A stretch of 64,000 nucleotides of DNA from Minisyncoccota bacterium (GTDB taxonomy: Bacteria > Patescibacteriota > Minisyncoccia > Phycocordibacterales > UBA9973), in NCBI GenBank assembly GCA_041664465.1, contig JBAYKP010000001.1:68204-132203 (forward strand). The letters are read 5' to 3'. The notes beneath the pieces were generated by a model. That model was not told the origin of the DNA. It did not search any database and saw only the letters and a list, made by a program, of their open reading frames with translations. Positions 1,794 through 59,296 of this stretch are shown piece by piece (the first letter of the stretch is position 1; each line of letters opens with the position of its first letter). A program made the translations under genes and the position numbers.

Positions 1794-3578
1794 TTATATA
1801 AATTCAGCTTGATAACATTTCTCGCAATACACTATCTCCTTCCTGTCTTCACTTATTGCTGTTTCAAAATTATTCTGACATGGTTCACTCCCATGAGCAT
1901 GTTCTACTGTATTTCTGTATTCTTTATTCTCTGATTCTATACCACCACACATACATTTCCTAGTTTCTAATTTTAATGGATTTGTTTTCTTAAGCCTTTC
2001 ATAATGTCTACAATTAGGGCACAAATGAGGTAAAGCTATTTTCATAGAACGATATAAGATTAATTCATCAGGTAATATTTTGTATGCAGTTGTGCATTGC
2101 TGATTGCAATCTCCTCCATTATGCTCACATTCTATAACTTCATCTAAAATTGAATCTTCTACATTATCAATATGATCTGGTAAATCAACTGATTTCATTG
2201 TTATTGTGTAATCTCTTTCTGTAGAATCACTCCAAATGAAACCCTTCTCAAGAGCTTGATCTTTAGTTAAAGGAAACCATTGATGAGCCCATGATTCATT
2301 GTAGGTCCACATAGAATGCTCTTTGGGATAAAAATCTCCATATTTATAAACTCTACCCTCTTTGTCTATATAAGGCATATCATTCATGTGTTTTTTAATC
2401 CTTGGAATTAATTCTTCATATTCTTCCTTCGTATATTGCTTATTCAAAATACAATATTTTTTATGTCTTAATTTCGCACAACCAAAAAGATTTGTTCCTC
2501 CATAAACATTTTCGCAATATTCTGAATCAATAGTATTATTACTTGATCGTGTAAAAAAGGTATTTTGGCAACGTATAGCCCCTGTTGCTTCATATAAAAG
2601 CTCTGAAGTATCTCCCCCGAGAGTCATATCATAACTATCTTTTAATAATAAACCTCCATGAAAAATATACTTACAATTTTGAACCCCATGAGTCGCAGAA
2701 AAGCAATTCTTGCAACTTTTTGAATTTTGTATATCATCTCCTGAAACATCGATCGAATTAGAAATTAAGGCAAATTTTCTTGGTATTTTATAATACAGCT
2801 CAGCAAATTTTATTTTTGCTTTCTCAATAATAGAATAGCTTCCTAAATTATATTTTAATATTTCTTCTTCATAATCTTTTTTAGAATATTGTTTATTCCA
2901 AATACAATACTTTTGATTCCTCAAATTTATACAACCAAAACACTTAGAGCACCCAAGACAATTAAAAAGAAAAGAAGAATCTATACACTCATCGGAAAAA
3001 TAAGTAAATTTTGTATTATATAAATCACCTGAATTTAAAATTTCATAAACATGATCAGCATTTATTACAAAGTCTGCATCAAGAGAGTCTTTGGTAAATA
3101 TTGGGGTTAAACAATAATAACAATTAATACACTGCATGCCACTGAAGACAAAGGTGCAATTTTTACAACGAATAATTCCATTGCAATATTTGCAATCAGT
3201 TGAATTTTGAATATTAGTTGCCTGGCATGGCACAACTTTTCTCAATTCATCTAATTGCTCAAAAAATGGTTTAGAAAAATCATATTCTTTGCCATAAGAA
3301 AGTGGATTCCAGCTATCACTCCACCAACAATCATTACAAAAGACAACTACTTCTCTGGTTGGAGAAAACAAACTGATGGTATCTTTACCGCAGTTATCGC
3401 AAGAATCTTTATATAAAGTTCTTTCTGAGATATTATTTAACCTATTTATTAATCTACACTCTGGGCAGAAAGTTGGTGGTGGAACTTTAATTTTCTCATA
3501 AAATGAGAAATCATCAGGCTCAATGGTGAAATTAAGCTTGCAGTTCTGACAGGTTCTGTTTTCTGGTTTATGCTCCAT
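1794..3578 (-). CDS. cytoplasmic multi-CxxC (zinc-ribbon-rich) protein of unknown function with an internal duplication
   Basis: 594-aa ORF with more than 20 CxxC/CxxxC pairs. The module ...C..CFGC..L...KYCI(W/L)NKQY(S/T)K(K/E)(D/E)YEE... occurs twice. No signal peptide and no recognised catalytic motif. Confidence 0.5.
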   Translation of the reverse strand: MEHKPENRTCQNCKLNFTIEPDDFSFYEKIKVPPPTFCPECRLINRLNNISERTLYKDSCDNCGKDTISLFSPTREVVVFCNDCWWSDSWNPLSYGKEYDFSKPFFEQLDELRKVVPCQATNIQNSTDCKYCNGIIRCKNCTFVFSGMQCINCYYCLTPIFTKDSLDADFVINADHVYEILNSGDLYNTKFTYFSDECIDSSFLFNCLGCSKCFGCINLRNQKYCIWNKQYSKKDYEEEILKYNLGSYSIIEKAKIKFAELYYKIPRKFALISNSIDVSGDDIQNSKSCKNCFSATHGVQNCKYIFHGGLLLKDSYDMTLGGDTSELLYEATGAIRCQNTFFTRSSNNTIDSEYCENVYGGTNLFGCAKLRHKKYCILNKQYTKEEYEELIPRIKKHMNDMPYIDKEGRVYKYGDFYPKEHSMWTYNESWAHQWFPLTKDQALEKGFIWSDSTERDYTITMKSVDLPDHIDNVEDSILDEVIECEHNGGDCNQQCTTAYKILPDELILYRSMKIALPHLCPNCRHYERLKKTNPLKLETRKCMCGGIESENKEYRNTVEHAHGSEPCQNNFETAISEDRKEIVYCEKCYQAEFI

Positions 3579-3630: not shown

Positions 3631-4863
3631 TTATGCCACAATACAGCCACCTAGGCAAATGTCGCCATCGTAGACTACGATAGACTGACCTTTATCCACC
3701 AGTACATTTTTATTAAAAGTTATTTCACAGGTCAGACCTGTGCAGACTACTTTGCAATCTAAAAGCTCTCCGTGGTAACGAATTTGAGCAGTATACCCGC
3801 CTTGACTCGTCGGCGAGGCAGGAGCTTTATTTTTTTCTGGTATCTCTAGAATCCAATTTGCCTTACTACATAGGACCGTCCTATGTAGTATACCAGTTGG
3901 ACTGGTATATTCTTCCCCTAGGCAAGGCCTAGGGGAAACTGTAATTGTGTTTTTTTCTATATCTTTTGAAACTACATATAAAGGTTTGCTATTATCTTCA
4001 TTTTTGAAAATTGTAAATCCGTGACGTTCTCCGAGTGTGAAGAATATCGCACCGTCGTGTGAACCTATAACTTTTTCTTTTTTATCCTCTTCTCGGCGAG
4101 CAAGTAATACATCCCCCCTCTTAGTTTCAATATAATGTTTAAGAAAATCTTTCATATCTAAAGGACCTAAGAAGCAGACACCTTGACTGTCCTTCTTCAC
4201 TGCTGTCGGAAGTTTATATTTCTCTGCTAATTTGCGCACTTCTGTCTTCTCTAAATGTCCTACTGGAAATAAAGTATGACTCAAATCATCTTGAGTAAGA
4301 GTCCAAAGAAAATATGATTGGTCTTTAGAGGTATCGGGAGATTTAAGTAGGTAATTCTGAATTTTTTCCTCCCCTGCTAAGGGGAGGTGGCTCCTAGCCG
4401 GAGGGGTCTGACCCCCTCGCCCTTCGGGCACTCCCCCTTGGCAGGGGGAGATTGAATTCACTGCATAATGCCCTGTTGCAATAAAATCTGCTCCACGCTC
4501 TTTTGCAAATTCCCAAAAGACTCCAAACTTCACCATGCGGTTGCACATTACATCTGGGTTTGGAGTGTTCCCCTTTTTGTACTCTTCTATCATATAGTCT
4601 GCCACACCTTTCTTGTAAGCCTCTTCTGCATCACATTCTAAAAATGGTATATCGAGATGTGCACAGACTCGCATTGCATCACGTCTTTCATCCTTCCAAG
4701 TGCACTCTATAAAGTCCGGCGACCACGTACGAATAAAAACCCCAACGACGTTGAATCCTTGATCTTTAAGAAGTGCTGTCGCGACGGAGCTATCCACTCC
4801 ACCCGACACACCCACAAATACAGTTTTATTTATTTTCTTTCCCATCTTGCGAAAATTCCACAA
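3631..4863 (-). CDS. mnmA: tRNA-specific 2-thiouridylase MnmA, enlarged by in-frame palindromic insertions
   Basis: MGKKINKTVFVGVSGGVDSS (PP-loop), FIATGHYA, DQSYFLW, ICLGG. The likely true start is M at 4845. The protein is ~410 aa against ~360 typical, because of the inserts at 4368-4450 and 3866-3935. Confidence 0.9.
   Translation of the reverse strand: MWNFRKMGKKINKTVFVGVSGGVDSSVATALLKDQGFNVVGVFIRTWSPDFIECTWKDERRDAMRVCAHLDIPFLECDAEEAYKKGVADYMIEEYKKGNTPNPDVMCNRMVKFGVFWEFAKERGADFIATGHYAVNSISPCQGGVPEGRGGQTPPARSHLPLAGEEKIQNYLLKSPDTSKDQSYFLWTLTQDDLSHTLFPVGHLEKTEVRKLAEKYKLPTAVKKDSQGVCFLGPLDMKDFLKHYIETKRGDVLLARREEDKKEKVIGSHDGAIFFTLGERHGFTIFKNEDNSKPLYVVSKDIEKNTITVSPRPCLGEEYTSPTGILHRTVLCSKANWILEIPEKNKAPASPTSQGGYTAQIRYHGELLDCKVVCTGLTCEITFNKNVLVDKGQSIVVYDGDICLGGCIVA
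3728..3740. repeat. short palindrome caggtcAgacctg (AGGTC-N-GACCT module) inside mnmA
   Basis: Perfect 6-bp arms. The same module is found at 5355-5410. Confidence 0.4.
3866..3935. repeat. three adjacent GC-rich palindromes inserted in frame in mnmA
   Basis: ctacataggac-c-gtcctatgtag (11-bp arms), taccagt-tgg-actggta, and cccctaggc-aag-gcctagggg (9-bp arms). They encode ...HRTVLCSK...SPRPCLGEE. Confidence 0.7.
4368..4450. repeat. 83-nt composite GC-rich palindromic element inserted in frame in mnmA
   Basis: cctcccc-tgctaa-ggggagg, gagggg-tctgac-cccctc, and ctccccc-ttggca-gggggag hairpins in an otherwise AT-rich gene. It encodes ...PCQGGVPEGRGGQTPPARSHLPLAGEE... between the conserved GHYA and DQSYFL motifs. 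Confidence 0.75.
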
Positions 4864-38367: not shown

Positions 38368-38910
38368 ATGATTAAAATTGTTCAAAGTGAAGATCCAGTC
38401 CTACGCAAAATATCAAAGGAAGTTCCTCTCGCTCTCATCAGCAAACCGAAAATACAAAAAATCGTACAAGATATGATGGTGGCTTTAGATTCTCAAGATG
38501 ATGGTGTAGCTATTGCTGCTCCACAGATAGGAGTATCACTTCGTATCTTTGTAATCTCTGGAAGAATTTTCGATGAAGATTTCATTAGAGGAAAAGGCTC
38601 AACGCAAGGCGATCTCTACAAGAAAGCTCGTCGCCCTGATATGGTCTTTATCAATCCAATATTGAAGAAGATATCTAAAGATAGAAAGCTCCTATCCGAA
38701 GGATGCCTCTCTGTCCGACCTCTATATGGCAAAGTCCGCCGTGCCACTCGTGCCTCAGTCGAAGCTTATGATGAAAATGGCAAGAAATTTAGCAAAGATG
38801 GAAATGGATTACTCGCTCATATTTTTCAACACGAGACAGATCATCTAGATGGAATACTCTTCACAGACAAAGCAAAAGATATACACGAAACGCTTTTAGA
38901 TGAAGAATAA
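38368..38910 (+). CDS. def: peptide deformylase
   Basis: GVAIAAPQIG (motif 1), EGCLSV (motif 2) and HETDHLDG (motif 3). Confidence 0.9.
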   Translation: MIKIVQSEDPVLRKISKEVPLALISKPKIQKIVQDMMVALDSQDDGVAIAAPQIGVSLRIFVISGRIFDEDFIRGKGSTQGDLYKKARRPDMVFINPILKKISKDRKLLSEGCLSVRPLYGKVRRATRASVEAYDENGKKFSKDGNGLLAHIFQHETDHLDGILFTDKAKDIHETLLDEE

Positions 38911-38911
38911 A

Positions 38912-38936
38912 CCTAGCAAGAACGGTTCTTGCTAGG
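38912..38936. repeat. REP palindrome cctagcaagaac-G-gttcttgctagg (12-bp arms), followed by two half-copies that overlap the 3' end of the RAYT gene
   Basis: Perfect palindrome. Half-repeats ttcttgctagg run to ~38975. Confidence 0.75.
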
Positions 38937-38955
38937 TTCTTGCTAGGTTTTCTTG

Positions 38956-39636
38956 CTAGGTTTGAGGTTCTAGGGTTTCAAAATAATTTTCAACAAATTC
39001 CTTAAAAGATTGTTTATTATGAAAATAATCTGGAAAATTATCTTTATTTAAAATACTATTTTCTATTCTATCATCTCCTGTATAATCTTGATAACTAGAA
39101 TATTTATATGATTCTAAAAAGTTCTTCATATCTACTGATGACTTATTCAAATTATCTTCCCACTCAGGAAATTCTATCTCTAATGAATTAAGATGAATAT
39201 ATGCAAATAATTGTCTTAAATAATTATCATCATTCCCTACTAATTTAGCTTTAAATAATCCTCCAAATAATGCTCCTTTTCTTTGATATTTTATATTAAA
39301 AAACATTGAATATCCTACTCCTAATTTTCTCATAAATTTAGTTATACCACCATCAACATCTTGTCTAACTAATATGTGAAAGTGATTGTTCATCAAACAC
39401 CACGCACCAATAGAGATAATACTCTTTTCTTTTTTGATTTTTAAAATATCATAGTATTTTTTATTTTGATTATTTACAAGATTATCAATCCGAAAAGATT
39501 CTTCAGAGTTTGCGAGATAAAGAAGCATAATAAATCTTTCATAATCTCCTTTGATTTTAAAAATTACTCTCTTATCAATACCCCTATTATAAATATGGTA
39601 ATATTCTCCTGTTATAAATGGATCTTTCCTTAACAT
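38956..39636 (-). CDS. IS200/IS605-family Y1 (HUH) transposase, REP-associated tyrosine transposase (RAYT)-like
   Basis: GEYYHIYNRG..., LMNNHFHILV (HUH motif) and ...QLFAYIHLNSL (candidate catalytic Tyr). It is flanked on both sides by the same 25-bp REP. Confidence 0.6.
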   Translation of the reverse strand: MLRKDPFITGEYYHIYNRGIDKRVIFKIKGDYERFIMLLYLANSEESFRIDNLVNNQNKKYYDILKIKKEKSIISIGAWCLMNNHFHILVRQDVDGGITKFMRKLGVGYSMFFNIKYQRKGALFGGLFKAKLVGNDDNYLRQLFAYIHLNSLEIEFPEWEDNLNKSSVDMKNFLESYKYSSYQDYTGDDRIENSILNKDNFPDYFHNKQSFKEFVENYFETLEPQT

Positions 39637-39662: not shown

Positions 39663-39687
39663 ACCTAGCAAGAACGGTTCTTGCTAG
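39663..39687. repeat. REP palindrome copy (same orientation as 38912) plus a half-copy
   Basis: cctagcaagaacggttcttgctagg, followed by tagttcttgctagg. Confidence 0.75.
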
Positions 39688-39716
39688 GTAGTTCTTGCTA
39701 GGTTCTATAAAATATA

Positions 39717-40295: not shown

Positions 40296-40350
40296 GTAAT
40301 ATTGCGAATAGTCTCACGAAATATCAAAAGGTGATATCGTGATATCGAAA

Positions 40351-40375
40351 CCTAGCAAGAACCGTTCTTGCTAGG
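40351..40375. repeat. REP palindrome copy in inverted orientation (central C)
   Basis: cctagcaagaac-C-gttcttgctagg, preceded by the direct repeat gtgatatcgtgatatcg. Confidence 0.7.
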
Positions 40376-40404
40376 TGGAGGAGGTGTGATATACTCTGTG
40401 GTAT

Positions 40405-41280
40405 ATGAATACAGAGAAAAAGAATCTAAAATTTATATTCTTTGGGACACCCTATGCCGCAAGTAAGACATTGCAAATACTTAAAGAAAGAGGATATATA
40501 CCAGAAGTGATTGTGACCTCTCCCGATGCAAAAAAGGGGCGTGGCTTGGAAATGCACGAAACGTCAGTATCAACTTGGGCTAAGGAGAATAATATAAAAT
40601 GCTTAAAGCCTGAAAAAATTGATGAAGAATTTATAAATAATATTTTCCCTAGCCACAAGTCCGACTTGTGGCCGATACTTTCTGTAGTTGTGGCTTATGG
40701 GAAAATACTCCCAGAAATACTAATCAAAAAGCCTGAATTTGGAACTATAAATGTTCATTATTCCCTTCTTCCAAAATACAGAGGTGCATCTCCTCTTGAG
40801 GCTTGCCTATTAAATGGAGATGAAGTTACTGGGGTAAGTATTCAGCAGATGGAATATAAATTAGACAGTGGGCAAATATTACGAGAAGAGAAAATAGATA
40901 TAGGTATAAATGATACTAAAGAAGAATTACGTGAGACTCTCATAAGTCTAGGAGGAAATGTCTTATGTGATATTTTACCCCAAATAGTAAACCAAGAAAT
41001 TAAATCAAAAGCTCAAGATGAGAATCTAGCGACCTTCTGTAAGAAAATTAAAAAAGAAGATGGGGAAATCAATCTAGAAGAAAATGCTAAAGAGAATTGG
41101 AATAAATACAGAGCTTACTCTGGCTGGCCTGGGGTATTCTTCTTTGCAACTAAACATAATAAAAAGATAAGGTGCAAAATAACCAAAGCTAAATTAGAAA
41201 ATAATCAATTTATTATTGAAAAAATAATACCGGAAAGTAAAAAGGAGATAGATTATGAATCTTTCTTAAAACAAAATTAG
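40405..41280 (+). CDS. fmt: methionyl-tRNA formyltransferase
   Basis: KFIFFGTPYAA, VVVAYGKILP, INVHYSLLPKYRGASPL. It carries a 21-bp palindrome (40653-40673) in frame (...PSHKSDLWPI...). Confidence 0.85.
   Translation: MNTEKKNLKFIFFGTPYAASKTLQILKERGYIPEVIVTSPDAKKGRGLEMHETSVSTWAKENNIKCLKPEKIDEEFINNIFPSHKSDLWPILSVVVAYGKILPEILIKKPEFGTINVHYSLLPKYRGASPLEACLLNGDEVTGVSIQQMEYKLDSGQILREEKIDIGINDTKEELRETLISLGGNVLCDILPQIVNQEIKSKAQDENLATFCKKIKKEDGEINLEENAKENWNKYRAYSGWPGVFFFATKHNKKIRCKITKAKLENNQFIIEKIIPESKKEIDYESFLKQN
40653..40673. repeat. palindrome gccacaagtc-c-gacttgtggc in frame inside fmt
   Basis: 10-bp arms. A near-identical element (gccataagtccgacttatggc) lies inside rnhB. Confidence 0.65.
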
Positions 41281-54330: not shown

Positions 54331-54918
54331 ATGAAAAAATTAGTAATTTACAGATGTTTACCTTTCAAGGATTGGCATCAACCATTTGATAAAGATGGTA
54401 GCAGGTGGCTTATTGGTGGATACAGGCAAGAATGCAGTTGTCCATACGGAAGCCATTGGGATCCAAGATTTTTAGATTACAAAGATCCACTAAACTTAAA
54501 AGAAATTCTCTCCATGCAAGAAGGAATAAAACTTTTAACTTTTTACTCTTGGAAAGACGAAGAATATGTGGCTTTTCATACATTTAAAAATGTTGAATTT
54601 TATTCTGATTTTATGCGTATACTGTTTAAGGAAAAAGTGGATGTTTGTGAGTACGGAGGAACTGGAGAGCAGCTTACGGGAACCAGGCTTATTGCGGTAA
54701 TTGAAGATGCAGGTGAAATCAACGCTTTTGGAAAAATTGGAGGCATTGATGAGTTTATTGATGAGCTGTCAAAATTAACTGGCATTTCAATCCAGGAGAT
54801 TAAACAACAAATTAATGAATTAGATGAAACACCCATTCCATCAGAACTAAAAATTTCAATAGAAGAAATTACTGAGGAAGCTAAGAGGTCGGGCAATCTT
54901 GCTCCAATTTTTGGGTAA
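54331..54918 (+). CDS. hypothetical protein
   Basis: 195-aa ORF containing CSCPYGSHWDP. No recognised domain. Confidence 0.35.
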   Translation: MKKLVIYRCLPFKDWHQPFDKDGSRWLIGGYRQECSCPYGSHWDPRFLDYKDPLNLKEILSMQEGIKLLTFYSWKDEEYVAFHTFKNVEFYSDFMRILFKEKVDVCEYGGTGEQLTGTRLIAVIEDAGEINAFGKIGGIDEFIDELSKLTGISIQEIKQQINELDETPIPSELKISIEEITEEAKRSGNLAPIFG

Positions 54919-55037
54919 ATTAAACTAAACCGCTAGTTGTCGGGTAGTAGTAGAAACTGCTATTCACACTAGCGGTTTTCTATTTATCTAATTAAGGTTC
55001 CAATTCTGTCCCTCCCCACCTCCCCACCTTCCCCACT

Positions 55038-55070
55038 CAAAACCCCCTAGCTTTGCTTCGGGGGTTTTGT
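55038..55070. terminator. bidirectional rho-independent terminator
   Basis: aaaaccccc-tagctttgcttc-gggggtttt. Confidence 0.65.
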
Positions 55071-55094: not shown

Positions 55095-55796
55095 TTAGTG
55101 TACAACTACTGTATGGGCATTATTGGCGGCTGATTTCTTTGCTACCATACGAGCAACTACTATGATTGCTAATACCAAGAGTATGAACATAATCCATTGG
55201 AATAGTGAACTTGGTAAGAAGCTACCAGAACCTTTCAAGGACAAAGCTGTGACTCCATTGGTGTCTACTTGCTGTGTTGCATAAGGTTGATAAGCACTTG
55301 CTACCATCATATTGTTGGAGTAACCTCTGTTGGCATCGAAATTTACATACTGACCAGTATTACCTTTGTTGCCTGTGGCTGTTGGAATTGTAGTAGTAGT
55401 CGTATTTGCATTTATGACAGAAGCTCCTTGTGTATTACCAGTGGTAACATATCTGACAGTTTGCTGTTGGGGTGCATATTGGACGACTTGCTGTTGCGGA
55501 ACGTACTGAACAGTTTGCTGTTGAGGTACGTATTGTATCTGAGTTGTAGTTGGCTGTGCATATACATAAGTATAAGGTTGCCTTACATAATTGCTATTAA
55601 TAGAATTATTATAATAAGAAGGAGTGCTAAGGTCTGTAACACTTGTGCTATAGCCATTATTATAATATCCATCACTATAATAAACAGCGGCAGAAGCATC
55701 ATGATACGAAACGGCAAGAATAGCAAAGATTCCGAGAGCTATTAAGTTTTTTAAAATATTCTTTTTCATAAGCCATATTATATCATATAAGTACAT
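55095..55796 (-). CDS. secreted Y/Q/T-rich repeat protein with a C-terminal TM anchor
   Basis: Signal peptide (likely start MKKNILKNL at 55769), QYVPQQQTV x3 repeats, T-rich segments, and a C-terminal TM helix FQWIMFILLVLAIIVVARMVAKK. Confidence 0.45.
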   Translation of the reverse strand: MYLYDIIWLMKKNILKNLIALGIFAILAVSYHDASAAVYYSDGYYNNGYSTSVTDLSTPSYYNNSINSNYVRQPYTYVYAQPTTTQIQYVPQQQTVQYVPQQQVVQYAPQQQTVRYVTTGNTQGASVINANTTTTTIPTATGNKGNTGQYVNFDANRGYSNNMMVASAYQPYATQQVDTNGVTALSLKGSGSFLPSSLFQWIMFILLVLAIIVVARMVAKKSAANNAHTVVVH

Positions 55797-55883: not shown

Positions 55884-58538
55884 ATGATAACGAAATTGAA
55901 AAATAACAAAAAGAGAGTTCGCCTAGAGGACTATATCTCCCCTGTTAGCTACAATCTGACCTTACATCCTGACCTTTTGTCTTCTACTTTTTCGGGACGC
56001 GAAATTATAAAAATAAAAGTGGATAAAGAAATAAAACAAATCACTTTGCATAGTAAAGATATAGATATAGAAACGGTAGAGCACATAGCAGATGGCACGC
56101 AACAATTTGCCCATAAAATCACATACGATGCAAAGAGAGAAACTGCAACTTTCTATTTTAAAAATAAAATAAAAAAAGGGCAGAGCGAGCTCTCAATTAT
56201 TTTCAGTGGTATCATCAATGATAATTTGAGAGGATTTTATAAAAGTAGATACATACTAGATGGTGAAGAGAAATTCATAGCCACGACCCAGTTCGAAGCA
56301 ACAGATGCTCGCCGTGCTTTCCCTTGCTTTGATGAGCCAGCACACAAAGCAATATTTGAAGTATCGCTCGTAATACCTGAGAATCACACAGCCATATCAA
56401 ATACTTTACCTATTGAAATAAAGGAGCACAGTCTCGGATACAACATAGTATCTTTCTCTCCCACGCCGATAATGTCTACTTACCTACTCGCATTTATTAT
56501 CGGCGAGTTTGAATATGTGGAGGGATATACCCGTCCGAACGGGTCATCCGGGCAGGCTAAGGACAAGGTTCTTGTCCGTGTATTCACAACTTCTGGTAAA
56601 AAGCATCAAGCCAAATTTGCATTGGAAGTCGCTATCAAATCACTTGAATTTTATAATGAATATTTTGATATACCCTATCCACTTCCTACCTTAGACCTCA
56701 TCGCTATCCCCGACTTCGAAAGTGCGGCAATGGAGAACTGGGGGGCCATCACTTTCCGCGAGACGGCTATACTCGTTGATGATCTACATACTTCCCTTTC
56801 AAACAAACAATGGGCAGCGATAGTGATAGCCCACGAATTGGCACATCAGTGGTTCGGCAATCTAGTGACGATGCATTGGTGGACAGACCTCTGGCTCAAT
56901 GAAGGCTTTGCTTCATATATGGAAAATTTATGTACGGATCACCTCTTTCCAGACTGGCATGTATGGGATTTAAATATTGCCGATAGATATGCTGTCGCTC
57001 TCAAGCTTGATTCACTTGCCACTTCACATCCAATAGAAGTAGTCGTCCACCACCCAGATGAAATAAGTGAAATCTTTGATATGGTCTCTTATGCTAAAGG
57101 CTCTGCGATGATAAAAATGCTGGCAGAATATCTAGGGCACGACAAATTCCGCGATGGGCTACGTCACTATTTGAAAAAGCACAGTTATGGTAATACCAAT
57201 ACCGTAGATCTCTGGAATGCTTTTGAGAAAGTAAGCAAAAAGAAAGTAATAGAAATAATGAATTCTTGGACGAAAGAAACCGGCTATCCACTCGTGACAA
57301 TTTCCCCTAGGCAAGGCCTAGGGGAAATGTGGGAAATCAGACAAGAGCGATTTTTCTCAAGTAGAGTGAAAGCTTCTGAATATAAAAATTCAAAAAGTAA
57401 AAAACACTTGTGGCAAATACCTGTGAAATACGAAAGCCTGTCGGATAATAGAGAAGTTATGGATATGCTCATGACTAAAAAATCTGCTCCAATGATTGGC
57501 ACCTCTATCGGCAAAGTAAACAAAGAAGAAGGAACATTTATACGAGTCTGCTATGATCAAGAGACTCTTAAAAAATTGAAAGAAGAAATACAAAATGGGA
57601 AACTTTCTGTGAAAGATAGACTGGGAGTTATTCGTGATATGTTCGCTCTGGCTGAAGGTGGATACATCAGTACGATAGAAGTACTTGAATTCTCTCTCGT
57701 ATATAAAAATGAAACAGAGTTCATCGTCTGGTCTGAAATAGCGAGTGGTATAAATAGAGTGGCAAATATATTGGGCGAAGAAAAATTTAAAAATCTATAC
57801 GATAAATACGTACTCACATTATTTAGTCACATCGCAAAAGAATTGGGGTGGGGAGAAACCCCCTCGCCCTCTGGGCACTCCCCCTTAACAGGGGGAGACA
57901 AACACTCACAAGTTTTCTTGCGGAGTCTAGCACTCTCTATGTCGGCACATTATGGAGACAAGAAAGTAATTACCGAAGCCAAAAAACTCTTTAAAAATAA
58001 GGCTAAAATGCCAATAAGAGCTGACATCCGCGGAGTAGTCTACAACATTGTGGCTGCAAGTGGCGGGGAGAAGGAATGGAAACTTTTCGAAAAGTTATAC
58101 AAAGAAGAAGAATTTCATGAAGAGAAGGATAGATATGCTAGGGCATTAACTTCATTTAAAAATAAAGATCTACTTCGGAAAACTTTAAACTTTGCTATAT
58201 CAAGAGACGTTCGTGTTCAAGACGCTCCATTCATAATAGTGGCCGTCTGGCAGAATAGTATAGGTAAAGACATTACTTGGAAGTTTATAAAAAGTAATTG
58301 GAAAATAATTGTGAAAAAGTTTGGCGAGGGTGGACATTTCCTCTCCCGAGTCCTCTCTCCTCTCGGTACTCATACAAAAGAAAAAGATTACAAAGACATT
58401 AAAAATTTCTTTGCTAAAAATGTCGCCCCTGGCTCTGCCCGCACCCTCCTCCAATCCTACGAACGCATCGAGTCCAACATCGCTTGGCTCAAAGATGACA
58501 AAGCCTCTATCAAATCTTGGCTAACAAAAAATTACTAG
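55884..58538 (+). CDS. pepN: aminopeptidase N (M1 family)
   Basis: GAMENWG, the HELAHQWFGNLVTMHWW zincin motif, and LWLNEGFASY. It carries in-frame palindromic inserts at 57304-57324 and 57845-57897. Confidence 0.9.
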   Translation: MITKLKNNKKRVRLEDYISPVSYNLTLHPDLLSSTFSGREIIKIKVDKEIKQITLHSKDIDIETVEHIADGTQQFAHKITYDAKRETATFYFKNKIKKGQSELSIIFSGIINDNLRGFYKSRYILDGEEKFIATTQFEATDARRAFPCFDEPAHKAIFEVSLVIPENHTAISNTLPIEIKEHSLGYNIVSFSPTPIMSTYLLAFIIGEFEYVEGYTRPNGSSGQAKDKVLVRVFTTSGKKHQAKFALEVAIKSLEFYNEYFDIPYPLPTLDLIAIPDFESAAMENWGAITFRETAILVDDLHTSLSNKQWAAIVIAHELAHQWFGNLVTMHWWTDLWLNEGFASYMENLCTDHLFPDWHVWDLNIADRYAVALKLDSLATSHPIEVVVHHPDEISEIFDMVSYAKGSAMIKMLAEYLGHDKFRDGLRHYLKKHSYGNTNTVDLWNAFEKVSKKKVIEIMNSWTKETGYPLVTISPRQGLGEMWEIRQERFFSSRVKASEYKNSKSKKHLWQIPVKYESLSDNREVMDMLMTKKSAPMIGTSIGKVNKEEGTFIRVCYDQETLKKLKEEIQNGKLSVKDRLGVIRDMFALAEGGYISTIEVLEFSLVYKNETEFIVWSEIASGINRVANILGEEKFKNLYDKYVLTLFSHIAKELGWGETPSPSGHSPLTGGDKHSQVFLRSLALSMSAHYGDKKVITEAKKLFKNKAKMPIRADIRGVVYNIVAASGGEKEWKLFEKLYKEEEFHEEKDRYARALTSFKNKDLLRKTLNFAISRDVRVQDAPFIIVAVWQNSIGKDITWKFIKSNWKIIVKKFGEGGHFLSRVLSPLGTHTKEKDYKDIKNFFAKNVAPGSARTLLQSYERIESNIAWLKDDKASIKSWLTKNY
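57304..57324. repeat. palindrome cccctaggc-aag-gcctagggg in frame in pepN (the same element is found in mnmA at 3915-3935)
   Basis: Identical 21-mer to the mnmA copy. Here it encodes SPRQGLGEM. Confidence 0.7.
57845..57897. repeat. GC-rich composite palindromic element in frame in pepN (same family as mnmA 4368-4450)
   Basis: ggggtggggagaaaccccctcgccctctgggcactccccc-ttaaca-gggggag shares ccccctcgccct.cgggcactccccctt..cagggggag with the mnmA element. It encodes GWGETPSPSGHSPLTGGD. Confidence 0.7.
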
Positions 58539-58570: not shown

Positions 58571-59296
58571 TTAGTGTATAAATGACTTGCGATGGATTGG
58601 GGTCTGACCGTGAGTTCTGATGGCAGAATAGTGAGCGCGGGTACCATAACCCATATGCTTATTGAAACCGTATTCGGGGTAATCCAAAGCATACTTTGTC
58701 ATAATCCTATCTCGCGAAACTTTCGCCACAATGGATGCCAAAGAAATAACCGGATGAAGCTCATCCCCTCTTATAATCGTCTCCTGATTTATGTACTCTA
58801 CTGGGGCATGAAGTCCACCATCGAGAAAAATCTTGAACGAAGAGAGCGAAACAGAATCTTCCAAATTTTTATCGGCGTCGGAGCCCTTTAGGGTAAGCCC
58901 TGAAAAATTTGGAAGATTCTGTGAAGCGACTTTATCAAGTGACTGATTCAAAGCTTTCTGAATACATTTTGCAATTCCAAATTTATCAATATTCTCGGGG
59001 GAAACAAAAGACACAGCATAGTCGCAAAGACCTTCGGTCTTTGCGACTTTCAAATATTCAAACCACTCTTCCCTTTGCTTCTTACTAAGCTTCTTCGAAT
59101 CTTTTAATTTTGGTAATTTTACATAGGACGGTCCTATGTCTTTTTTGCCATAAGTCCGACTTATGGCTGATTCAATAAAATTATTATCCTTAATTAAAAA
59201 AGCACAAACAGCCACTGGCCCTGCCAAAGGGCCCCGACCAACCTCATCTATGCCAATTATGTATTTTGTGGTGTCTAAAGCTCCCATATAGAACAA
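58571..59296 (-). CDS. rnhB: ribonuclease HII
   Basis: IIGIDEVGRGPLAGPVAVCA (DEVGRG catalytic motif). It carries two in-frame palindromes at 59121-59167. Confidence 0.85.
   Translation of the reverse strand: MFYMGALDTTKYIIGIDEVGRGPLAGPVAVCAFLIKDNNFIESAISRTYGKKDIGPSYVKLPKLKDSKKLSKKQREEWFEYLKVAKTEGLCDYAVSFVSPENIDKFGIAKCIQKALNQSLDKVASQNLPNFSGLTLKGSDADKNLEDSVSLSSFKIFLDGGLHAPVEYINQETIIRGDELHPVISLASIVAKVSRDRIMTKYALDYPEYGFNKHMGYGTRAHYSAIRTHGQTPIHRKSFIH
59121..59167. repeat. two palindromes (acataggac-g-gtcctatgt and gccataagtc-c-gacttatggc) in frame in rnhB
   Basis: They are related to the mnmA element ctacataggaccgtcctatgtag and the fmt element gccacaagtccgacttgtggc. They encode ...RTYGKKDIGPSYVKLPK.... 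Confidence 0.7.

Follow-up and report, generated by a model that had tools for sequence, protein, structure and literature searches.

A dispersed GC-rich palindromic unit within mnmA and pepN of a Patescibacteria genome, a probable selfish insertion with relatives in several phyla

We analyzed a 64,000-nucleotide stretch of DNA from a Minisyncoccota bacterium (contig JBAYKP010000001.1, positions 68,204 to 132,203 of the forward strand; hereafter the window), in which a cluster of GC-rich hairpins lies within mnmA, the gene for the tRNA 2-thiouridine synthase, and a related single copy lies within pepN, the gene for an M1 aminopeptidase. The best matches of both proteins are named Candidatus Nomurabacteria or Paceibacterota and belong to the candidate phyla radiation (CPR). 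For the window MnmA, read from either of two start codons, a look-up gave no identical protein. The genes, hairpins (H1 to H5) and repeat copies are as follows.

3631-4845, minus strand: mnmA, tRNA 2-thiouridine synthase (homologues, Pfam domains, alignment).
4368-4451: composite palindromic element, an inverted doublet of ~41-nt units joined at the H3 stem, in frame in mnmA (sequence, fold, GC island).
4368-4387: H1, 8-bp stem cctcccct/aggggagg, loop GCTA (sequence and fold).
4389-4399: H2, 4-bp stem ggct/agcc, loop cct (sequence and fold).
4401-4418: H3, 6-bp stem gagggg/cccctc, loop tctgac (sequence and fold).
4419-4429: H4, 4-bp stem gccc/gggc, loop ttc (sequence and fold).
4431-4450: H5, 8-bp stem ctccccct/agggggag, loop TGGC (sequence and fold).
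4411-4451, plus strand: canonical 41-nt unit ACCCCCTCGCCCTTCGGGCACTCCCCCTTGGCAGGGGGAGA, holding H4 and H5 (nhmmer profile match at 4410-4451, E = 6e-14).
55884-58538, plus strand: pepN, M1 aminopeptidase (100% identical to P0121, M1 family metallopeptidase of Candidatus Paceibacterota).
57858-57898, plus strand: single unit in pepN (nhmmer profile match, E = 1e-12).

Positions 4368-4451 form a GC island (66% GC) within mnmA in a genome of 35% GC. Over 4365-4457 the value is 66%, against 35.4% for the whole window, and this is the longest GC island there (at least 65% GC, 40-nt windows). An earlier note on this DNA had described three hairpins forming a GC island inside an AT-rich gene; the island is as it said and all three stems are present as given, but the hairpins number five in total, H2 and H4 with their 4-bp stems having been overlooked. 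The five follow one another in tandem at 4368-4450, and the minimum free energy fold of the 101-nt region consists of exactly these five stems. As RNA, the region folds with -54.9 kcal/mol (z = -4.2), and 0 of 200 dinucleotide shuffles were as stable; as DNA, it forms the same stems with -29.6 kcal/mol (z = -4.2). The hairpin cluster in mnmA is thus confirmed as genuine. The minus-strand open reading frame (ORF) of mnmA stays open through the island and encodes ISPCQGGVPEGRGGQTPPARSHLPLAGEEK in frame, the Gly/Pro/Arg-rich loop that the same note had read there.

The mnmA element holds a ~41-nt unit twice, in inverted orientation; this unit has the consensus ACCCCCTCGCCCTTCGGGCACTCCCCCTTnGCAGGGGGAGA and the general layout ACCCCCTC-(GCCC ttc GGGC)-A-(CTCCCCCT tnGC AGGGGGAG)-A. 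The right-hand unit (4411-4451) reads ACCCCCTC-GCCCttcGGGC-A-CTCCCCCTtggcAGGGGGAG-A. On the left, H1, H2 and the GAGGGGT arm make up an inverted copy that has diverged, and the two units meet in H3 (GAGGGGT...ACCCCCTC). Among copies, H2 is the hairpin position with the greatest sequence variation. The single unit in pepN is identical to 4411-4451 at 37 of 41 bases, and all four mismatches are in hairpin loops. The sister copy that had been placed at 57845-57897 in pepN is therefore a real one, but it comprises one unit, that is, half an element, at 57858-57898, whereas 57845-57857 are native pepN codons (GWGE) that also occur in the empty-site orthologue L097. The pattern CTCCCCCNNNNNNGGGGGAG has exactly two occurrences in the window against 0.03 expected. 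The messenger carries the reverse complement of the unit in mnmA and its forward strand in pepN; since opposite DNA strands are read, the encoded peptides are unrelated (SPCQGGVPEGRGG in mnmA, TPSPSGHSPLTGG in pepN).

In an alignment of 120 MnmA homologues, the element corresponds to residues ~134-161, in the loop past the GHYA motif, and sits between the invariant GHYA and KDQSYFLW. Presence or absence is precise: 23 of the 120 homologues are without any insert (for example P0033, with GHYARNNNKLMKG), and the closest homologue (P0001/L090), with 86% amino acid identity outside the insert, has an empty site at the DNA level. In the mnmA orthologue L091, the site is filled and the element is decaying, with several broken stems. 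An AlphaFold2 model of the window MnmA (predicted template modeling score 0.74) has residues 137-159 as coil between strands 128-130 and 166-168, with a predicted local distance difference test (pLDDT) value below 50; this low-confidence coil between two strands suggests that the insert is a disordered excursion at a hairpin loop. Judging from the intact ORF, translation of the insert would extend a surface beta-hairpin loop by a disordered, Gly/Pro/Arg-rich stretch of ~27 residues.

The unit insert of PepN, 14 residues long, was found in 7 of 120 homologues, including the window's own P0121. The closest relative besides P0121 (P0124/L097) has an empty site, reading TGG AAT AAT AAA AAA GGA GAT where the window has TGG GGA GAA [ACC...GGG] GGA GAC; filled pepN sites occur in L016 and L218. 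At the mnmA junctions, AATTCA is present on both sides of the element. The flanks of the unit are weakly TTA at the 5' side and AAA at the 3' side, with a TTA-N preference of 0.2-0.3 bits.

The family is not private to the source genome and spans several phyla. A first scan with the pattern GGGCACTCCCCCTNNNNAGGGGGAG in one genome per GTDB species gave 89 loci, and a second scan of metagenomes, anchored on the other half of the unit, gave at least 120. Both demanded an exact match to part of the unit, so that only the remaining positions are informative on conservation. Overall, the unit is present in more than 200 loci of several phyla, and the additional copies that the earlier note had expected do exist. 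The 89 genome loci come from Nomurabacteria, Paceibacterota, other Patescibacteria, Saccharibacteria, many Bacteroidales and Flavobacteriales, Spirochaetota and Pseudomonadota, and the metagenome loci include many human-gut contigs. The 15 bases upstream of the first pattern, which were not required by the scan, are 76-96% conserved. Over 68 copies, conservation begins and ends sharply at -15 and +25 relative to the pattern, the information dropping from 1.06 to 0.02 bits at the 5' border and from 1.38 to about 0.5 bits at the 3' border. With such sharp borders, the unit is a discrete element.

The unit occurs singly (pepN), as an inverted doublet (mnmA and other CPR loci: L010, L022, L040, L049, L053 and L062), as a doublet around an AT-rich spacer (Bacteroidales) and in alternating arrays. 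The Bacteroidales element is ~125-135 nt long and consists of a unit, a variable AT-rich spacer and an inverted unit, in the layout CTCCCC-loop-GGGGAG A TGTCGCGAAGCGACA GAGGGGT; the H3 arms of the mnmA element are the outer ends of this longer form. About 24 of 31 CPR loci are intragenic (ORF of at least 50 codons on both sides), against ~1 of 27 in Bacteroidota, by a tally drawn from locus listings combined with record titles. The Bacteroidales copies are intergenic, often immediately 3' of a stop codon. By their conserved motifs, we take the CPR host genes to be those for RNase R, TsaE, PheT, FtsK, MurI and a YjeF-like epimerase, in addition to mnmA and pepN, which are confirmed hosts and the only ones of this set that the window holds.

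Palindromes can be made locally by fold-back synthesis, and all genomes involved are metagenome-assembled, so that template switching or an error of assembly or binning could in principle have generated the island. However, the 41-nt unit recurs in near-identical form at loci unrelated to one another, across numerous independent assemblies and projects, the best matches of the host genes are CPR proteins, and the Bacteroidales copies lie on contigs of up to 1.57 Mb. A local origin or artefact is thereby effectively refuted.

Searches for a known RNA family or a vector gave little. Rfam 15 had no match in the window at gathering thresholds, and none over the elements in 12 loci at E values up to 1. 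Among 2.9 million viral contigs, the two patterns had 0 and 2 matches; given this near absence, phage is unlikely to be the main reservoir. The 101-nt region had no blastn match in plasmids.

Several related arrangements were seen at other loci. In a Pseudomonadota metagenome-assembled genome (MAG) of 69% GC (L082, 238-626), four units alternate in orientation at a spacing of ~100-150 nt, a cluster resembling bacterial interspersed mosaic elements (BIME). Gallionella sp. SMAG_U7545, likewise among the Pseudomonadota, has a ~135-nt miniature inverted-repeat transposable element (MITE) whose inverted termini are AACCCAGATTGTCCATTAG...CTAATGGATTATCTGGGTT and which was seen on no fewer than 25 contigs of a single MAG; it holds two related hairpins of the CTCCCC(C)T-loop-AGGGG(G)AG type (L002, L003, L012, L014 and ~20 others), and some copies have an extra insertion within the hairpin loop (L007, L025, L065). 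In a gut-type variant, from human-gut and other metagenome contigs, the H5 loop is enlarged by an internal hairpin, for example CTCCCCCTAT-CTCATCTACGATGAG-CAGAGGGAG (L105 6670-7215, L209, L202, L190). These variants form tandem arrays with related modules such as AACCCCTCCGTCCTGCGGACACCTCCCCTAT, and no Rfam family covers them.

The reading frames used by the unit were then compared. Five translations of the canonical unit occur in CPR genes (TPSPSGHSPL, PPRPSGTPPSQGE, LPLPRGSARRARG, SPCQGGVPEGRGG and SPPAKGECPEGE), from both orientations, and the sixth frame is represented by a partial, frameshifted reading only. All six frames of the consensus unit are free of stop codons. The same holds for 31 of 58 unit copies, where shuffles would predict 13, and for 0.5% of random 41-mers drawn from the window. 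The mnmA doublet (87 nt) is stop-free in a single frame, which is the frame that mnmA reads, and this is the outcome expected of a filter on random insertions. The unit is a DNA-level entity and not a protein-level one.

These data bear on the explanation that the Gly/Pro/Arg-rich loop is a lineage-specific protein feature selected in MnmA, for instance for binding of tRNA or a partner, with the hairpins being incidental. The insert is indeed in frame, stop-free and located in a surface loop, and it is kept in several MnmA homologues as SPCQGGVPxGRGG...HLPLAGEEK. However, other frames or the other strand are used in PepN and in the putative RNase R, TsaE, PheT, FtsK and others, the unit is intergenic in Bacteroidales, and MnmA relatives at 86% identity do without the insert. 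Moreover, at least seven unrelated insert types are scattered in the same MnmA loop, the 91% identity of the element DNA between the window and L091 far exceeds the 67.5% identity of third codon positions, and the segment is predicted to be disordered (pLDDT below 50). We therefore regard a selected loop as very improbable. The earlier note had considered that the insert might prove to be conserved as a protein in distant lineages; instead, the site is empty in the nearest relatives of both MnmA and PepN, and several frames are used elsewhere.

The pepN site provides evidence on how often the unit was gained. In neighbor-joining trees, the unit-bearing PepN alleles were monophyletic in 0 of 200 bootstraps, and each of them has an empty-site sister (support 0.71-1.0). 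The empty sites share an NKK/KK (xKK) sequence, taken as ancestral. Since the alleles are patchy and xKK could not be restored by excision of the unit, we infer that this one pepN codon gained the unit independently at least five times. Between the window and L218, pepN has 69% DNA identity, whereas the 10-codon bin over the unit has 97%, the upstream flanks 47-60% and the two adjoining downstream bins 77% and 63%; as the identity peak is confined to the unit, no long recombination tract around it was seen in this pair. Similarly, the element is 93% identical between the window and L016 in pepN, compared with 58% at third codon positions, and the 91% against 67.5% in mnmA (window and L091) follows the same pattern. 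Broken stems in the L091 copy indicate that copies can be inherited and decay. In putative RNase R orthologues, one site carries the unit in one orientation in L032 and L035 and in the opposite one in L087.

CPR bacteria take up DNA, and a single ancient insertion per gene that was passed among lineages by homologous recombination, with repeated losses, would need no transposition. It would agree with the identical junctions of all filled pepN alleles, with the residues GW beside the unit in P0139 and P0151, whose sister sequences have GF or TF, and with the orthologous copies in related genomes (L016, L091). It does not agree with the rise of similarity in the element alone between the window and L218, nor with the ancestral NKK/KK of the empty sites, which excision from a filled site would not regenerate. 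Furthermore, it cannot account for the unit in more than 10 unrelated genes or in other phyla, or for the opposite orientations at one putative RNase R site, and the 50-100-nt flanks follow the host tree in the one filled case tested. We consider this explanation distinctly unlikely.

The MnmA loop past GHYA is an insertion hotspot: over the tree of the 120 homologues, at least seven insert types are scattered, and in L094 the loop holds a related variant of the mnmA element. L095 and L096 have at this place a different palindrome of ~90 nt (core CCTTAACCCCATTTTTAGGAGTACCTAAAAACGGCACGCCCCCACCCGTCGC) in opposite orientations, and L093 has a 150-nt compound insert, one end of which is common with the L095 type.

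The hairpins are maintained by compensatory changes. In CPR doublets, the arms of H1 vary together as CCTCCCCT/AGGGGAGG, CCTTCCCT/AGGGAAGG, GCTCCCCT/AGGGGAGC and CCCTCCCT/AGGGAGGG, and those of H5 as CTCCTCCT/AGGAGGAG in L094 and CTCCCCCC/GGGGGGAG in several metagenome loci. The H2 position has 70 distinct sequences, of which 42 form at least three perfect outer pairs, while ~1.6 would be expected from shuffles. As the first scan fixed the H5 bases, covariation was judged on H1, H2 and the second scan.

We interpret the island as a non-autonomous selfish palindrome inserted in mnmA, similar to MITEs and to hairpin-forming doublets of repetitive extragenic palindromes (REP doublets, or REPINs), and assign to this interpretation as a whole a probability of about 0.75; that a dispersed repeat element was inserted is, taken by itself, highly probable. 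The mobile or copying mechanism suggested in the earlier note gains support from the comparative data, that is, from the many loci, the empty and filled sites and the several frames on both strands. A trans-acting enzyme would copy the unit by recognizing folded single-stranded hairpins, and it would prefer as its target an A/purine-rich tract adjoining a GGAGA-like sequence; at the recurrent landing sites, the 3' side is A/purine-rich and resembles the unit's own GGGGGAGAAA end. Selection would then purge every gene-breaking insertion, and in gene-dense CPR genomes the surviving copies would be found mostly in tolerant protein loops. The mnmA copy would persist because it landed in frame and stop-free in a surface beta-hairpin loop.

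The most likely candidate for the copying enzyme would be an HUH/Y1 tyrosine transposase of the REP-associated tyrosine transposase (RAYT) or IS200/IS605 (TnpA) type, but a Y1-type mobilizer is itself only a tentative proposal. Palindrome-associated elements derived from IS200/IS605 have subterminal hairpins, lack terminal inverted repeats and a duplication, and insert 3' of a fixed tetra- or pentanucleotide; the unit has hairpins and no visible duplication, but 5' of it there is only a weak TTA-N preference (0.2-0.3 bits). A RAYT-like Y1 gene is present in the window and in related genomes, which we count in favor of a selfish insertion.

38956-39636, minus strand: Y1_Tnp/RAYT-like gene, 226 amino acids (Pfam Y1_Tnp, E = 2e-8; HFH and YIHLN motifs).

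Among the 89 genome loci and L090-L092, a CPR Y1 homologue occurs in L073 and L091 only; these homologues (49% identity) are flanked by palindromes of their own, CTCCGCTAGG...CCTAGCGGAG and GCCACAAGTCCGACTTGTGGC. Since the Y1 genes are flanked by other palindromes, we do not accept the window gene as the cognate enzyme of the GC-rich unit. In 220 loci with flanks of up to ~21 kb per locus, no pair of units brackets a transposase-sized ORF, and no parent insertion sequence was seen within these flanks. Around the window gene, the palindrome ACCTAGCAAGAA-CSG-TTCTTGCTAGGT occupies the flanks 38910-38960 and 39663-39702, and a third copy is found 700 bp away at 40350-40376.

Several observations weigh against a selfish insertion. 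The filled pepN site is not a simple insertion, as it is 30 nt longer in net terms with ~2 A-rich codons replaced, and the junctions in mnmA and pepN have no clear target-site duplication. The conservation of 19-21 bases of the unit was imposed by the exact-match search. Two copies were seen in 64 kb, and current activity in the source genome is unproven; the decaying L091 copy means that some copies are old and vertically inherited. No transposase was linked to the unit family in the window or in the loci fetched. The only NCBIfam match of the Y1 gene (REP-associated tyrosine transposase, REP_Tyr_transpos) scores 25 bits against a cut-off of 80, and the perfect palindrome found to either side of the gene, CCTAGCAAGAAC-CG-GTTCTTGCTAGG, is not the unit. 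In addition, the loop bases T-n-G-C of the unit are 79-93% conserved, and the other strand reads as GNNA/GNRA-like tetraloops. Finally, the Bacteroidales copies often lie directly 3' of stop codons.

The last two points would suit a functional structured nucleic-acid module, such as an mRNA-stabilizing, terminator-like or protein-binding cassette of the kind proposed for REPs, where function explains the conservation. The compensatory changes that keep the stems fit this explanation as well, as does an element identity above that of the flanking gene. Nevertheless, no Rfam family is found even at permissive thresholds, the unit is transcribed in either orientation within CPR genes, and no U-tract follows the hairpins in mnmA or pepN. 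Close relatives lack the unit at the same site, the L091 copy decays in place with broken stems, and host function does not explain the repeated gains in coding loops of unrelated genes. We consider a functional module unlikely and retain the interpretation as a selfish insertion.

A further-reaching proposal is that the unit represents a previously undescribed, phylum-crossing hairpin element with site-specific, homing-like integration, which re-enters the same codons and replaces an A-rich tract beside GGAGA. We regard this as possible but doubtful. If it were true, sites in pepN, MnmA and the putative RNase R and TsaE would have been entered repeatedly; loops like that of MnmA past GHYA would be landing pads where palindromic families succeed, invert and displace one another; and mobilization would proceed outside the RAYT, IS200 and MITE models, or by a very widely shared host enzyme copying such hairpins.

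With respect to known systems, the behavior of the unit is closest to that described for the Rickettsia palindromic elements (RPE), and it is also close to that of the intragenic REP dimers of Di Nocera et al. (PMC3733652). According to the summary of Ogata et al. (2000, 2002) in PMC10969869, RPEs are palindromes that lie in frame within the housekeeping genes of a reduced genome and are translated with them. On that description, both RPEs and the unit are palindromic, occupy in frame various housekeeping genes that are unrelated to one another, in a genome that is small, AT-rich and densely packed with genes, are translated as fold-compatible extra loops (here as the intact ORFs suggest) and also occur outside genes, and for neither is a mobilizing enzyme identified. 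The values for an RPE are ~100-150 bp, one genus as host and one conserved peptide per family, whereas the unit measures 41 nt and the doublet 83 nt, the hosts are CPR and other phyla (Patescibacteria, Bacteroidota and others), and five translations are made from both strands. Further differences are that the CPR unit is strongly GC-rich with several short hairpins and that it would have been repeatedly and independently inserted at one codon.

With REPs, REPINs and BIMEs (PMC3116915, PMC3337134, PMC3733652), the unit shares the organization of short hairpins into singletons, inverted doublets and alternating clusters, the preservation of hairpins by compensatory change, a location mostly downstream of genes (here in Bacteroidales) and a RAYT-like gene in the window; intragenic REP dimers encoding 20-30 amino acids are also on record (PMC3733652). 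REP palindromes, however, have the end tag GTAG/CGTC (PMC3733652), and the unit consensus ACCCCCTCGCCCTTCGGGCACTCCCCCTTnGCAGGGGGAGA has neither GTAG nor CGTC on either strand. A further difference is that the unit spans two hairpins and one half of the stem of a third. Many REP families are confined to one species (PMC3733652), and RAYT genes are typically flanked by their own REP type, whereas the unit family crosses phyla, its copy number is apparently low (2 copies in 64 kb), and within the 64 kb covered the RAYT-like gene is flanked by CCTAGCAAGAAC palindromes and not by the unit.

MITEs such as Correia, ERIC and Nezha (PMC10969869) resemble the unit in being small and non-autonomous with inverted termini, sharp borders and occasional in-frame fusions to ORFs. 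Terminal inverted repeats of the MITE type are present, as the two inverted units and as the ends of the ~130-nt element in Bacteroidales, but the junctions showed no clear target-site duplication, and the search for a parent insertion sequence with the same ends, within the flanks covered, gave none. In a large survey, MITE clusters were mostly genus-specific (bioRxiv 10.1101/2024.01.18.576219). Since REPs tend to be species-specific and MITEs genus-specific, it is unusual that one short unit is almost unchanged between CPR and Bacteroidales, human-gut lineages included. In the literature on palindromic, MITE, RPE or in-frame elements of CPR, Patescibacteria or Bacteroides, we found no description of this unit.

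Hairpin-forming inverted repeats in the coding sequence of AT-rich genomes are also represented by the GC clusters of yeast mitochondria, which are organellar and unrelated in sequence. The coding palindromes of Nematomorpha mitochondria (PMC6649704) are likewise translated hairpin-forming inverted repeats in AT-rich genomes, but they are organellar, of unrelated sequence, long, perfect and gene-specific, and do not form a dispersed family.

Palindromes within genes thus have a precedent in RPEs and in REPs of intragenic location (PMC3733652, PMC10969869). Rickettsia is the best-known source of in-frame, protein-coding palindromes, a few intragenic REP cases are known elsewhere, and CPR/Patescibacteria can now be added. 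Unusual as well are the repeated independent gain at a single codon, as the pepN alleles suggest, and the hotspot that a single loop of an essential enzyme provides for the turnover of several palindromic families. In practice, inserts of this kind lengthen and disorder the alignments of marker proteins on which CPR phylogeny and annotation draw. With the unit, it becomes testable how selfish DNA persists in streamlined genomes that have almost no room between genes, by what route it passes from phylum to phylum, and what enzyme makes its copies.

Coding genes of the window also harbor intragenic repeats of a second class, namely perfect palindromes of 9-13 bp whose loops are 3 nt long (CCG, CGG, AAG, TTC).

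3864-3890 and 3913-3937: palindromes in mnmA.
57300-57328: palindrome in pepN.
59020-59048, 59121-59139 and 59147-59167: further palindromes of this class.
40652-40672: palindrome of the same sequence as that beside the RAYT-like gene of L073.

Of these, TTCCCCTAGGC-AAG-GCCTAGGGGAA is present in both mnmA (as SPRPCLGE) and pepN (as SPRQGLGE), and variants, among them SPRSDLGE and SHRSDLW, are met again at the two sites in many homologues. Within mnmA, a third GC island (3786-3825) holds a small CTCG-ccga-CGAG hairpin and a CGTC motif and encodes the 9-residue insert PASPTSQGG, which is restricted to the query, P0001, P0002 and P0032 among the first 60 MnmA homologues. Just upstream of pepN, an intergenic C-rich tract (55006-55060) reads CCCTCCCCACCTCCCCACCTTCCCCAC...CCCCC followed by GGGGG and is bracketed by the ORFs 54331-54918 and 55095-55796, neither of which has a Pfam match. 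Directly downstream of mnmA, the minus-strand ORF 1794-3578 encodes a cysteine-rich protein of 594 amino acids with many CxxC pairs, for which the only match was a sub-threshold treble-clef zinc finger. At this position, L090, L091, L093, L094 and L096 have CutA1, and the P0002 contig has an unannotated ORF of 573 amino acids ahead of CutA1.

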